Of a stretch of DNA of 15,164 nt, positions 7,162-13,771 are shown in pieces. A program made the position numbers and the translations under genes. This DNA comes from Alteromonas naphthalenivorans (GTDB taxonomy: Bacteria; Babelota; Babeliae; Babelales; CAIQNR01). Every line of letters begins with the position of its first letter. The first letter of the stretch is position 1. The stretch is from positions 1-15,164 of the forward strand of contig JBLICC010000021.1 of assembly GCA_047631715.1 (NCBI GenBank), written 5' to 3'. A model generated the notes under the pieces. The model saw nothing but the letters and a program-made list of their open reading frames with translations, ran no database searches and was not told the origin of the DNA.

Positions 7162-7650
7162 GTACTAATCAGTACTAGTCTAATTCGTTTAAAAGCTCGT
7201 TTGCATCATCAAGAATGCTAGAATCAAAACCTTGTTGTTTCAAGATATCAATTGCAACATTTTGATCTGCTGCGCCTTCTTCTAACTTAAATGGATAGCT
7301 AAAAGATCCATTATCATGACGAACAACTCGTACTTGATAATTCTTAAAGTTTGGTGTTTTTGATTCAAGATTCTTTAGCTTAGGAAAATGAGACGCGAGT
7401 AGTAAAATACTGTTATCAATAGTCCCTAAACGTTTTGCAACGCCATAACTTGTAGCTTCACCTTCTCTTGGAGACGTTCCACTGAACATTTCATCCATAA
7501 TAGAAAGAGAAAACTTTTTAGAATCAAGACTTTTAACTGTTTCAAGTAACCCTTGAGCACGCAATACTTCTGATTTAAAGAGTGAGTTTCCACCAGCAGT
7601 ATCATCAGTGATATTCATGTAAGTATTAATCTTTGTAAACGGAGTGAATG
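7132..7650. repeat. Near-identical direct repeat, copy 1 (copy 2 at 9338-9856): terminator plus 3' end of the ATPase domain
   Basis: Manual alignment at offset 2206 gives about 15 substitutions in about 519 nt and no indels. 7132-7273 is identical. Confidence 0.92.
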
Positions 7651-9208
7651 TTAGTTCTTTAACAGGTGCAATGCCTAATGTTTGTGCCATTAAGATACTT
7701 GTAGCAAGACCTTTTAAGAAGCAAGACTTACCACCAGCGTTAGGACCAGTAAGAATAATATTTTGTGGCCTATCTTGACCAAGAGAAATAGAGTTAACTA
7801 CTACTTTTTCAATAGGTACAAATGGATTCCACATATTGTTCATAGTGATATGTGGTTTATCTGCAATATCATAAGATGCAAAAGTATAGCCAACTCGCTT
7901 ATCAGCAAATTCGGTATATAATTTTGCTGTAGAAAGATACGCATCAAGCTCACCAATTGCATAGAAGGCAGGAACAAGTTCTTGTTTAATGTTTTGCAAG
8001 AGATAATAAGCAACACGGACACGGCCTTTTAGAGAGAATATTGTTTGCTTACCTTTAAAAGTATTAGTTTTTAAGAGGGTAACAAGATTATTCAGTTCTT
8101 TTGAAAGTACTGTTGTTTGTTGTATAACATCTTTAATCGCTTTTATGTGTTCAAGATTTAAAAAAACAGGATGTTCTTTAAAAGTTTCTTCAAAGCTAGA
8201 CAAGGTGTCTATAATAGTTGCAACACCATTGGTTTGTTCATGTACATAATTTAATAGATTTGCATGTTGTATTTGGTTGTCAATACTACTTTTCATGGAC
8301 AGTGCTTGGTTGGCAACCAACAAGGCACTACTACCGATAATAAGTAATTTTGCTTGGAGCGATGTTTTAGGATCGGTAAGTAAGGAGTATCCTAGAGAAG
8401 GAGCATTTTTAATAATTGAGATAATGCTTCCTTTGGCTGTACTAAAACGTCGTGCAGCCCAAGCAGCTTGTATTGGTGATAAAACAATAGGTAGAACTAT
8501 AGTAAGAGTGTGACCTAGGTCTGTTTTTGTCTCTTGCCATAGAGTGGATCTATTTAAAGGTTCAAGCCAAGAATCTTTATGTACATACAGATTATCGAGG
8601 AATATTTTGTTGCTATTACTATTTTCTGATTGCCAAAAATGAAGAAATGCAGATTCTTTATCTTTAATATCTTGAAGTTGTTTTTCGATAAAGTTTGCGA
8701 GTTCTTGATTTTCTACTAAAGTACGAATAATTGCTTGTCTGTTTTCTAAAGTAGTAATATTATCCGTTGGGGTTGTAAGTATATAAGAAAGATAGGCGTG
8801 ACCAAATCCAGTAGTTGTTCTATCAATCTCGCTCAAAATCGTTGCTGATTTATTATGATTTCCGCAAAGAAGCTCTAGATCGCTCCAAATTAGAGGAGAA
8901 ATAACAGAATTTTTTGCAGAAATTGAACCATAGGGGAAAATTTTATTATAAAATAAATTGTGATAATCATAATTAGTATCATCTAGTTTATTTATACTAA
9001 AATTAGGATCATCAAGACCTGTCATTCTGCTAAATAAAGATTTCTCTTTTTTAGAATTTTCGTCTTTTTTAATAACATTTTTTTGAAATGCATTAAGATG
9101 TGAGTTTCCTAATGCAACAAATGGATGAATTTCTTCTACTTCTTGTTCAGCATATCCATATGATGATATAAGTAGTACGAGTGTTAAAAGACGCTTTTTT
9201 AAAATCAT
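7175..9208 (-). CDS. MutS-family (domain III/V type) ATPase with signal peptide, paralogue 1 (677 aa)
   Basis: TGPNAGGKS Walker A, SLFKSE signature, MDEMFSGT Walker B and ASHF. The MutS core-like segment reads IDRTTTGFG...P...RQAII. Signal peptide MILKKRLLTLVLLISSYGYA. AGGGG RBS. Confidence 0.9.
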   Translation of the reverse strand: MILKKRLLTLVLLISSYGYAEQEVEEIHPFVALGNSHLNAFQKNVIKKDENSKKEKSLFSRMTGLDDPNFSINKLDDTNYDYHNLFYNKIFPYGSISAKNSVISPLIWSDLELLCGNHNKSATILSEIDRTTTGFGHAYLSYILTTPTDNITTLENRQAIIRTLVENQELANFIEKQLQDIKDKESAFLHFWQSENSNSNKIFLDNLYVHKDSWLEPLNRSTLWQETKTDLGHTLTIVLPIVLSPIQAAWAARRFSTAKGSIISIIKNAPSLGYSLLTDPKTSLQAKLLIIGSSALLVANQALSMKSSIDNQIQHANLLNYVHEQTNGVATIIDTLSSFEETFKEHPVFLNLEHIKAIKDVIQQTTVLSKELNNLVTLLKTNTFKGKQTIFSLKGRVRVAYYLLQNIKQELVPAFYAIGELDAYLSTAKLYTEFADKRVGYTFASYDIADKPHITMNNMWNPFVPIEKVVVNSISLGQDRPQNIILTGPNAGGKSCFLKGLATSILMAQTLGIAPVKELTFTPFTKINTYMNITDDTAGGNSLFKSEVLRAQGLLETVKSLDSKKFSLSIMDEMFSGTSPREGEATSYGVAKRLGTIDNSILLLASHFPKLKNLESKTPNFKNYQVRVVRHDNGSFSYPFKLEEGAADQNVAIDILKQQGFDSSILDDANELLNELD

Positions 9209-11450: not shown

Positions 11451-11476
11451 AATTTTATGTAAAATCAATAGATGTA

Positions 11477-13771
11477 TTATCTATTCAGAATTGCATTCGC
11501 GTTATCTACAATGCTAGAATCAAAACCTTGCTCTTTAAGAATATCCATAGCAACATTTTGATCAGCAATTCCTTTTTCTAGTTTAAATGGATAGCTGAAT
11601 CCACCATTCTTATGACGTACAATTCTTACTTGGTAGTTTTTAAAATTACCAGTATCTTTCTCTAGGTTTGTCAAAAGAGGGAAATGTGTTGCAAGAAGTA
11701 AAATACTGTTCGTATTTTGACTTATATTGTCGGCAACACTATAACCAGCTGCTGCACCTTCTTTTGGAGATGTTCCACTGAACATTTCATCCATAATAGA
11801 AAGTGAGAACTCTTTAGAGTCAAGATTCTTAATTGTTTGTAGTAATGCTTGTGCACGTAATACTTCTGACTTAAAGAGTGAGTTTCCACCAGCAGTGTCA
11901 TCAGTAATATTCATGTAAGTGTTAATCTTTGCAAATGGAGTAAATGCAAGTTCTTCAACCGGTGCAATACCTAAAGTTTGTGCCATCAAAACACTTAATG
12001 AAATGCCTTTTAAGAAGGTAGATTTACCACCAGCGTTAGGACCAGTAAGAATAACATTTTGTGATTGACTTCCACCAAGAGCAATAGAGTTAGTTACTGT
12101 TTTTTCAACAGGTACAAATGGATTCCACATGTTAGATAAAGTAATTTCTGGTTGTTCTTTGTCTAAGTATGTTGGGAACGAGTAACGTACATTTTGATCT
12201 TGAGATTTTTGATACAGTTTTGTTGTAGAAACTAATGCATCAACTTCACCAAGCGCACGAAGAGCAGGCGCTAGTTCTTCTTTTACATCTTGCATAAGTG
12301 AATATGCTGCAAGTACACGACCCTTTAGAGAGAAGTAAGATGCTTGCCCTGTAAACGTATTAGTACGAAGAAGATTTATAAGTTTTTGAAGTTTATAAGA
12401 TACGTTGGTTGCTGTTTTATCAAAAAGTACATGTAGATTTTGATGATGTTCTAAGCTGTCGTAAAGAGCAGTATTGTTTTTGATAGCTATAGAACATTGT
12501 TCCATAGAACGAATAATGCTTGATGTTGCAATAAGCTGAGTATGTAAGTAGTTGGTAATATTATTAGAGTATTTTTCTCTATTAACTGCTACATACATAG
12601 ATCCGCCACCTATTCCAACTTTATAGAGACCACCTATAGAAGTGGGAATTTGTCCTTTGATCAAACCTTTAAGTGCAGATTTAGTCGCTTCTGTACCATG
12701 ATTTTTATAAGCAAAAGAAAGAAGTTCTTTAACGAGCCCTTCTTCTGTAATTTCTTGATCAGAATCATTTTTTCCAAGTAAGTCTTCTACGAAAGTAGAA
12801 ATTCCAGGCATTGATTCGGGAAGTATTTCAGTATAAAACTTTTTAATCTGATCTTTTTGTTCTTCAGATAGTTGTTCATTATTGTTTTTATTATGTTCTT
12901 CTATCGTATGATCTGCAAATTTTTCCCATGAAAAATCAGGGCCATCATAAACATTTTCTCTAATATAATTCTTTGCTGTTGGAAAGTGTTTTCCAAGTTC
13001 ACCTTTTGAATCTTCTGTGTTAGAAGCAATTTTATTATACCCAGATCTAAAGTTATTAATACCCCATTGTGTTATTGGGTACCAGGTAAATAATGCAATA
13101 GAAGGGATTTTATCAAACAGTGCAAAAGCTTGCATGCACTCAGTGCGAGAATTCAATTTTTTAAGATATCTAATTACAGGCAATGTTGAATTAAAATAAA
13201 AAGAAGCAATAGCTTTTTTATTAAATCCGCTTTCTTCTTGATACATAAATAAAAAATCATTTTCTGCTTGACCAGCTTGTTTTAATGCTTTATCAAGAAT
13301 GTTATAGAGCTCTGTATTATGTAAAAGTTCTTTAATTGCTTCTTGTCGAGCATAGAGTTTTTCAAGAGAGTCTGAGGGATGAGTAAGTCTATGTGCTAAA
13401 TCGTTAGTACCAAATTTAGTTGCAGATTCATCAATACGGCTAAGTAGAGAACTTTCTGGATTAGTTTCTCCAGCTAAAAGTTCAAGATCTTGCCAAAGAT
13501 TTTTATTAAGAATGCTATTAGGTGTACTTTTAGTTGTGCCGTATAAAGAAAGAATAAGACTATGTAATGTATGCTCATCCAGAGTTGGAATAGCTAAGTC
13601 TAAAGTTTTTGCTTTTTGTTTAATATCTTCTTCGGTTAGTTGTACAGGTTCTTTCTGTGTAAAACAACGTAATCGTAAATTAGCTATTTGATTGAATGAG
13701 TTCTCTGAGTAGCATGGAATGAAAGATGAGACGAGTAATACAAGACCCAAAAAACGTTTTTGTTTGATCAT
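11477..13771 (-). CDS. MutS-family (domain III/V type) ATPase with signal peptide, paralogue 3 (764 aa, large central insert)
   Basis: TGPNAGGKST, SLFKSE, MDEMFSGT and ATHF motifs. Core segment IDESATKFG...P...RQEAIKEL. Signal peptide MIKQKRFLGLVLLVSSFIPCYS. AGGGG RBS. Confidence 0.9.
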   Translation of the reverse strand: MIKQKRFLGLVLLVSSFIPCYSENSFNQIANLRLRCFTQKEPVQLTEEDIKQKAKTLDLAIPTLDEHTLHSLILSLYGTTKSTPNSILNKNLWQDLELLAGETNPESSLLSRIDESATKFGTNDLAHRLTHPSDSLEKLYARQEAIKELLHNTELYNILDKALKQAGQAENDFLFMYQEESGFNKKAIASFYFNSTLPVIRYLKKLNSRTECMQAFALFDKIPSIALFTWYPITQWGINNFRSGYNKIASNTEDSKGELGKHFPTAKNYIRENVYDGPDFSWEKFADHTIEEHNKNNNEQLSEEQKDQIKKFYTEILPESMPGISTFVEDLLGKNDSDQEITEEGLVKELLSFAYKNHGTEATKSALKGLIKGQIPTSIGGLYKVGIGGGSMYVAVNREKYSNNITNYLHTQLIATSSIIRSMEQCSIAIKNNTALYDSLEHHQNLHVLFDKTATNVSYKLQKLINLLRTNTFTGQASYFSLKGRVLAAYSLMQDVKEELAPALRALGEVDALVSTTKLYQKSQDQNVRYSFPTYLDKEQPEITLSNMWNPFVPVEKTVTNSIALGGSQSQNVILTGPNAGGKSTFLKGISLSVLMAQTLGIAPVEELAFTPFAKINTYMNITDDTAGGNSLFKSEVLRAQALLQTIKNLDSKEFSLSIMDEMFSGTSPKEGAAAGYSVADNISQNTNSILLLATHFPLLTNLEKDTGNFKNYQVRIVRHKNGGFSYPFKLEKGIADQNVAMDILKEQGFDSSIVDNANAILNR

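Follow-up and report, generated by a model that had tools for sequence, protein, structure and literature searches.

The DNA studied here is a stretch of 15,164 nucleotides (the window, that is, the whole stretch that was analysed) from a draft genome of 845 kb in 58 contigs (90% complete), whose closest named relatives are Babelota (Dependentiae). It holds three intact and uninterrupted open reading frames (ORFs) on the minus strand, which lie side by side and code for MutS-family ATPases, here called copies A, B and C. A preliminary description had placed three such tandem genes at 7175..13771 and quoted their N-termini, and both statements hold for the ORFs. Members of the Babelota are intracellular parasites of protists, and the three genes are best explained as tandem, separately punctuated copies of a MutS8-type ATPase gene in such a parasite. 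The genes and the parts of them that matter most for the argument are the following.

7175..9208, minus strand: copy A (P0001), MutS8-type ATPase of 677 amino acids (aa), from ORF, Pfam, motifs and an AlphaFold2 model
9149..9208, minus strand: predicted Sec-type leader of copy A, about 20 aa, from sequence, charge and hydropathy
8243..8596, minus strand: tip of copy A (residues 205-322), all-helical in the model, the most divergent part, with two marginally hydrophobic helices
7724..7747, minus strand: Walker A motif GPNAGGKS of copy A (residues 488-495), from a motif scan
9381..11297, minus strand: copy B (P0007), 638 aa, with the shortest tip (84 aa)
11238..11297, minus strand: predicted Sec-type leader of copy B, about 20 aa, from sequence, charge and hydropathy
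11477..13771, minus strand: copy C (P0016), 764 aa, with a tip grown to 221 aa, the earliest split among the three
13706..13771, minus strand: predicted Sec-type leader of copy C, about 22 aa, from sequence, charge and hydropathy

Copy A is built, in this order, of the leader, an N-terminal extension, core domain III, the helical tip, ATPase domain V and a C-terminal helix-turn-helix, and copy B is 64% identical to it. Contigs of run X1, which may be the source sample and hence gives no independent support, bridge the junctions of A with its upstream spacer, of this spacer with B, and of B with C at about even depth.

Domain content and ATPase motifs

All three proteins match Pfam MutS_V (E 5e-33 to 7e-31) and part of MutS_III only, and no Pfam match to MutS_I, MutS_II, MutS_IV or Smr was obtained for A, B or C, which agrees with the earlier statement that a mismatch-binding domain I and an Smr domain are missing. 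The ATPase motif set listed in the same place was found again in each copy (GPNAGGKS, SLF, DEMFSGT and SH/TH). In a sequence motif test Walker A, the signature serine, the Walker B DE and the H-loop histidine are all intact, so that the three proteins carry a complete MutS-type set and are predicted to be active ATPases. All 38 bacterial and all 64 viral members of the family described below share residues G488, P489, N490, G493, K494, S542, D572, E573, T578, E582 and H607.

Against the NCBIfam models of MutS1 and MutS2 the three proteins reach 95-143 bits, where the cut-offs are 400-642. They are not MutS2 proteins, as they end at the helix-turn-helix without Smr and score 95-98 bits against TIGR01069 (cut-off 400). 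Nor are they MutS1 proteins, since domain I, connector II and clamp IV are absent and the scores stay below the NCBIfam cut-off. The AlphaFold2 model of copy A (pLDDT 92.1, pTM 0.89) resembles canonical MutS structures with Z-scores of 25-29 and a root-mean-square deviation (rmsd) of 3-6; residues 98-677 superpose on residues 264-797 of E. coli MutS (Z 27.9, rmsd 3.6, 425 aligned residues). Because this alignment begins only at residue 264 of the E. coli protein, domains I and II appear to be replaced by a short extension in copy A. Taken over profiles and model, computation shows predicted proteins that have lost the mismatch-binding, connector and clamp domains and kept a MutS core with an intact ATPase. 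The term "MutS clamps" used before is therefore misleading, as the clamp domain is just the part that was replaced.

The genome has five MutS_V matches, namely a canonical MutS1 on contig C1 (896 bits, cut-off 480), copies A, B and C, and a fourth paralogue on C28, in line with the expanded family that had been proposed. As noted before, mutL is not among the 13 window ORFs scanned; the MutL of the genome is encoded on C40. With MutS1 on C1 and MutL on C40, ordinary mismatch repair is supplied separately from A, B and C, which, together with the missing domains, sustains the earlier view that these are not repair enzymes.

Family membership and distribution

MutS8 proteins are those which possess MutS domains III and V only, which we take to be the definition of the subfamily; the defining paper is reportedly that of Ogata et al. 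in 2011. We file the window genes as MutS8-type owing to this domain content, to their grouping in the tree and to their closer match to an annotated MutS8 than to a MutS7. In a Foldseek comparison with viral models, the "MutS subfamily 8" protein of Tetraselmis virus 1 matches copy A over the whole length (TM-scores 0.59/0.74, rmsd 6.3), whereas the MutS7 of the same virus matches it less well (0.48/0.35, rmsd 25). For the MutS8 proteins of Cardinium, InterPro domains of the core, the P-loop and the C-terminus are given (PMC5698495).

In homologue searches proteins from the Babelota side, from giant viruses and from Cardinium/Cytophagales rank ahead of any MutS1; the identity of the window proteins to giant-virus proteins is 30-34% over the full length. 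These three groups form one ATPase clade apart from MutS1, MutS2, MutS7-like and other proteins with domains III and V. The clade has an SH-aLRT support of 98 in a tree of 108 rows, made after dropping 19 redundant viral rows, and of 97/90 in a subset of 52 rows; the viral rows are IMG/VR proteins plus Homavirus. The trees do not settle the branching order within the clade, and no direction of transfer is therefore claimed. The named holders of the family all replicate inside eukaryotic cells. Phage and plasmid collections gave just partial ATPase matches below about 31% identity, and no RNA holder of the family was listed.

By hand count 174 out of 201 genomes of the phylum, this one (G000) included, have a match at E <=1e-30. 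Of the others, 25 match at 1e-12 to 1e-26, which is the range of MutS1, and two have no match. At most five candidates per genome were scored, so that these figures describe presence and not copy number. Across the 38 bacterial loci compared, a given neighbour gene family recurs in 5 at most. In other arrays of the Babelota side, two leader-bearing ORFs were seen in which the family match ends at profile positions 430 (L023:2875-4035) and 526 (L010:1392-3491); these are possibly ATPase-less or degenerate paralogues.

Six outgroup proteins with domains III and V, from free-living Bacillota and Bacteroidota, form the sister clade (100/96), and are probably the MutS3 of Lin et al. 2007 (PMC2190696), which we use as a candidate label. 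On a Clostridium perfringens plasmid (L132:910-2589) a membrane-anchored MutS of this domain content lies between genes of an HlyD adaptor and a class II bacteriocin, which gives the sister family a setting outside repair.

Leaders and probable export

Leaders were scored by a heuristic which asks for a basic n-region and, after it, an uncharged stretch of eight residues whose Kyte-Doolittle mean is at least 2.2. The rule fires on all four paralogues of the genome. As it fires at just 22 of 2605 internal Met positions (0.8%), the leaders of A, B and C are not likely to be chance. Their n-region has a charge of +2 to +3, the best eight residues reach a hydropathy of 3.25-3.38, and the charge after the h-region is -4 to 0. 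By the same heuristic they show the features of a Sec and signal peptidase I substrate, that is, a basic n-region, a short h-region, small residues at -3/-1 and a non-basic mature start. Signal peptidase cleavage follows the -3/-1 rule, and by this rule the leader of copy A is likely cut after GYA.

Among the unique bacterial ORFs of the family whose 5' ends are intact, 36 of 39 carry a leader, as against 0 of 62 viral ones. A looser rule finds it in 36/38 members of the Babelota side, in 5/6 of Cardinium/Cytophagales (the sixth being a partial sequence) and in 1/46 viral rows. When any start codon was allowed, a single false call arose, at an internal start within the MutS1 of the genome; the true start of this protein has no leader.

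The preliminary description had also considered a membrane anchor with the ATPase facing the cytoplasm. This fits poorly, because the h-region is short and the charge bias is of the N-in/C-out type (n-region above c-region; 33 of 36 members of the Babelota side), the reverse of the anchors of the sister family, where three of the six proteins have an N-out/C-in anchor with a 19-residue hydropathy of 2.5-2.9. The window leaders, with a 19-residue mean of 0.9-1.2, are by this measure too weak for membrane anchors. As far as the sequence can tell, the MutS8-type proteins of the window thus very probably leave the bacterial cytoplasm, a statement which concerns export alone.

The tip in place of the DNA clamp

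Residues 205-322 of copy A contain no beta strand in the model and are all helical. They lie where MutS1 has its strand-containing DNA clamp, and alignments of the sequence with solved MutS structures leave out profile positions 199-392. In bacteria the tip measures 84-281 aa, and conservation within the mature core is lowest there. For its two best helices the family median hydropathy is 1.68/1.23 over 38 bacterial members and 1.99/1.34 over 64 viral ones, the best ATPase helix being at about 1.4. On a rough membrane-insertion scale (dG-like), the family medians are 2.1 and 4.0 in bacteria and 2.2 and 3.5 in viruses; the tip of the sister proteins is a clear transmembrane segment (-1.2 to 1.5). 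An ancestral membrane hairpin, also as a property of the family, is thus plausible, but in A, B and C the tip is only marginally hydrophobic. Such weak tips might be just what passage through Sec would need. The stretches on either side of the tip make up a single core, so that with a working leader the ATPase would end up outside the cytoplasm both if the tip passes through and if it forms a hairpin.

History of the array

7178..7648, minus strand: gene-conversion tract of copy A (residues 521-677), near-identical to the matching part of B
9384..9854, minus strand: matching gene-conversion tract of copy B, from the comparison of synonymous divergence (dS) with A
9209..9380, minus strand: B-A spacer with a hairpin, a promoter-like TTGACT-16-TATTCT (9301-9274) and an AGGGG site, a near-copy of the C-B spacer
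11298..11476, minus strand: C-B spacer with a terminator-like hairpin (11450-11428), a promoter-like site (11391-11364) and an AGGGG site
7132..7154, minus strand: terminator-like hairpin with a T run, which closes the array

At a Babelota locus with 67% identity and the same neighbour genes (L008), a single copy stands at the corresponding position, flanked by the bfd-like gene and the tsaE region. A genome of the same genus (G047) has two family members in total, the window genome four. By inspection the spacers upstream of A and B are near-copies in hairpin, promoter-like site and AGGGG, so that the duplicated unit seems to have included its punctuation. The AGGGG ribosome-binding-like site stands 5 nt upstream of the ATG in all three copies; promoter-like sites in the region are not above chance (26 found, 30 +/- 5 expected).

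The dS of A against B amounts to 0.66-1.84 for residues 1-520 and falls to 0.15 and 0.09 for residues 521-677, where the two genes share an identical run of 96 nt. As each of them is far from L008 over the same residues (dS 0.7-1.2), the low values show gene conversion of the 3' half of the motor. For the same pair the nonsynonymous divergence (dN) reaches 0.74 in the tip, as against 0.005-0.13 in the ATPase. Because the tip value stays below dS, positive selection of the tip is not supported. These computed rates show purifying selection and gene conversion on the ATPase, together with a fast divergence of the tip.

Genome context

The genome contains a signal peptidase I gene and parts of a type II secretion system: T2SSF, T2SSG and further pseudopilin-like ORFs on C11 (L137:2625-7312), and two secretins and one T2SSE on contigs C27, C15 and C32. 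This agrees with published TM6 genomes, the core of which includes type II secretion parts and two gspD copies (PMC4776705). In C. destructans signal sequences are found on 44% of the proteins, vesicle budding sets in early and the mitochondrion of the host is remodelled (PMC6561590). For ATP import one feature is of interest.

G000:C2:16555-22436, minus strand: four tandem ATP/ADP translocase (TLC) ORFs

With these four ORFs host ATP would have to cross the periplasm, and the earlier argument that the periplasm lacks usable ATP is weak for this organism.

About 2 kb from the fourth MutS8 copy lies a leader-bearing ORF of 273 aa (L001:5358-6179, on G000:C28) with a RING-H2-like Cys/His pattern by eye, a candidate ubiquitin-ligase effector. 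In the window itself, leader-bearing ORFs without a credible Pfam family are found at 1-465 (minus strand), 591-1172 and 6086-6712 (both plus strand); their neighbours are radA-like, thymidine kinase, murA-like, ATP synthase gamma, NYN_YacP and tsaE housekeeping genes. Five tRNA genes (Tyr, Gly, Thr, Thr, Trp) at 14205-15062 on the plus strand lie beyond the bfd-like 2Fe-2S gene at 13896-14108, and the long minus-strand ORFs listed over the tRNA region are probably shadows.

Viral neighbourhoods

In 54 of 80 viral loci the MutS8 gene is followed by a gene for a protein with a membrane segment, directly adjoining in 49; counted by clusters at 50% identity, 22 of 30 have such a neighbour. The membrane segment was found in 53 of these 54 neighbours, and SAP was matched in 29 of the 33 tested (E <=0.05). 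A minor capsid P11 gene is nearby in 27 of the 80 loci. This gene neighbourhood points to a membrane or assembly context and not to a repair operon. Viral MutS8 members are described as mismatch-repair proteins (PMC3749498, PMC5698495, PMC6459981, PMC6163766).

Loci L071-L128 show a cassette in which MutS8 is joined by the protein with membrane segment and SAP and by two further conserved genes, a minor capsid P11 gene being close by; a comparison with the ESM Atlas yielded no name for one of the viral neighbour families. In loci L049-L069 MutS8 is paired with an Erv1/Alr oxidase and a glycosyltransferase. A viral MutS8 split over two consecutive ORFs (L067:2904-4924) is due to a frameshift or an assembly error. 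Of 101 phylum genomes 17 have SAP domains, and G000 is not one of them. Babelota SAP proteins were considered as partner of the viral gene and rejected: in the four loci opened the SAP is N-terminal, and leader, membrane segment and a nearby MutS8 are missing. Loci L140-L143 hold such N-terminal-SAP proteins of about 200 aa, with a layout unlike that of the viral protein.

Proposed function and alternatives

We propose that the MutS8-type proteins of the window are exported ATP-driven pincers which act at host membranes or on membrane-bound proteins and not in repair, with a probability of roughly 0.5. Sec and signal peptidase I would carry the protein to the periplasm, which it could reach because its tip helices seem too weak to stop transfer. 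It would then fold, dimerise via the C-terminal helix-turn-helix and form composite ATP sites, as is general for the dimers of MutS proteins. The type II secretion system of the genome or outer-membrane vesicles would bring it to a compartment of the host, presumably the same in which the viral homologues, made without a leader, work. Host ATP would open and close two long helical arms, and the arm tips, descended from a membrane hairpin, would grip a host membrane or membrane-bound protein instead of a DNA mismatch and tether or remodel this target. The copies would keep a common motor and diversify the tip. Of the exported effector that the preliminary description had suggested, export is thus probable from the leader heuristic and the charge bias, while delivery to the host is what we infer, and the effector idea is already in print for Cardinium (PMC5698495).

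Several observations weigh against such pincers. The leader rule is positive in 242 of the 583 ORFs of at least 150 aa in the genome (41.5%), so that a leader does not mark A, B and C as host-directed. The best tip helix of A, B and C scores 3.8, 3.3 and 6.1 on the dG-like scale, which is no improvement on a buried ATPase helix (3.6, 4.4 and 3.7), and membrane contact is therefore not supported for these copies. The viral loci are related by descent and partly near-duplicate, and the viral neighbour families have no match in the window's genome. The MutS8 homologues of Amoebophilus are reported without a signal peptide, and the only secretion system documented for Cardinium cEper1 is a phage-derived one (PMC5698495).

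In a wider and more tentative form, MutS8 as a whole might be a membrane-directed ATP-driven pincer used in the eukaryotic host cell by unrelated intracellular parasites. Viruses would make it in place, beside a membrane-anchored SAP protein and virion genes, and Babelota and Cardinium would export it via Sec. It would then be a near phylum-wide, multi-copy effector family of the Babelota with a conserved motor and a fast tip, and a candidate for membrane or mitochondrial remodelling in infections. We hold this to be possible, with some reserve.

The main rival, which we consider somewhat unlikely, places the ATPase in the periplasm or envelope, where it would be loosely anchored by its tip, use host ATP en route to the inner-membrane translocases and remodel the parasite's own envelope or envelope proteins in growth or late division. 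The four TLC ORFs would supply it, and the retention in 174 of 201 genomes looks like that of a housekeeping gene. The family median tip helix (dG-like 2.1) is within the range of the genome's TLC transmembrane segments, and Cardinium would export its MutS8 without a known two-step secretion route (PMC5698495). Against it stand the viral members, which keep motor and tip without an envelope or a periplasm. Changes in copy number (four here, two in G047) and in tip length (84-281 aa) are moreover variation of a kind more typical of host-facing genes.

A secreted factor acting on DNA, as proposed for Cardinium, would bind nuclear or mitochondrial DNA of the host without mismatch specificity or poison host MSH complexes. 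The fold is clearly that of MutS, the viral tips are net basic (median +6) with DNA-binding SAP domains in the neighbouring proteins, and the Cardinium proteins are called putative DNA-interacting (PMC5698495). However, domains I, II and IV are missing, the tip of the 38 bacterial members has no basic column that reaches 70% conservation, and the mature net charge runs from -11 to +15 among the four paralogues, which makes this explanation improbable. Equally improbable is a cytoplasmic or cytoplasm-facing protein with an uncleaved anchor or a non-functional leader, which would serve repair or recombination or would handle a protein substrate, as the reactivase ATPase KamC does. The topology seen in the free-living sister family, a trivial ATP supply and a weak NCBIfam match to KamC below the cut-off speak for it, but the charge bias is opposite to that of the sister anchors and the leader hydropathy is lower than theirs, MutS1 and MutL already cover repair, and a single crossing at the tip cannot put the ATPase alone inside, as the halves around the tip form one MutS core.

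If the pincer interpretation is true, a MutS-fold motor has moved from genome maintenance to work outside its own cytoplasm, and the DNA-repair annotation that a marker gene bears in giant viruses and Babelota is wrong. Few effector candidates other than ankyrin proteins have been named in Babelota. A conserved and assayable enzyme, present in most genomes of the phylum and common to culturable giant viruses and Cardinium, would make host manipulation by these bacteria directly testable.

Comparison with known systems

Canonical MutS1/MSH and MutS2 proteins share the MutS fold and the ATPase motifs with the window copies, which differ in lacking the mismatch-binding, connector, clamp and Smr domains. 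The sister proteins have the same domain content and likewise hydrophobic segments at the clamp position, but their tip is strongly transmembrane, the ATPase faces the cytoplasm in three of six, and a Sec-type leader is missing. The viral MutS8 proteins have no leader and a more hydrophobic tip of near-fixed length, whereas the window genome has leaders, four copies and a variable tip.

In the openly searchable literature, supplements and subscription papers aside, no report of MutS8 expansion or export in Babelota was found, and the word MutS is absent from PMC6561590 and PMC4776705. The idea that C. destructans has many mutS copies was not borne out in the former.

The closest published case is Cardinium hertigii, with two expressed MutS8 genes (CAHE_0017 and CAHE_0267) whose products have predicted signal peptides and are effector candidates (PMC5698495). 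The Cardinium proteins compared here (P0257, P0258, P0260 and P0261) are database entries with an assumed orthology to these two genes; they show 28-41% identity to the window proteins and fall into the same clade. Signal-peptide-bearing MutS8 as an effector candidate is therefore already published, and the subfamily is known but uncharacterised. New here are the near phylum-wide presence, the split between bacteria and viruses in the leader, the probable descent from membrane-anchored relatives, and the pattern of a conserved motor with a variable tip. Both systems thus have MutS8-affiliated proteins with a predicted signal peptide, in two copies in Cardinium, that are proposed as secreted effectors; Cardinium differs as an arthropod symbiont of another phylum, whose proteins are proposed to act on DNA.

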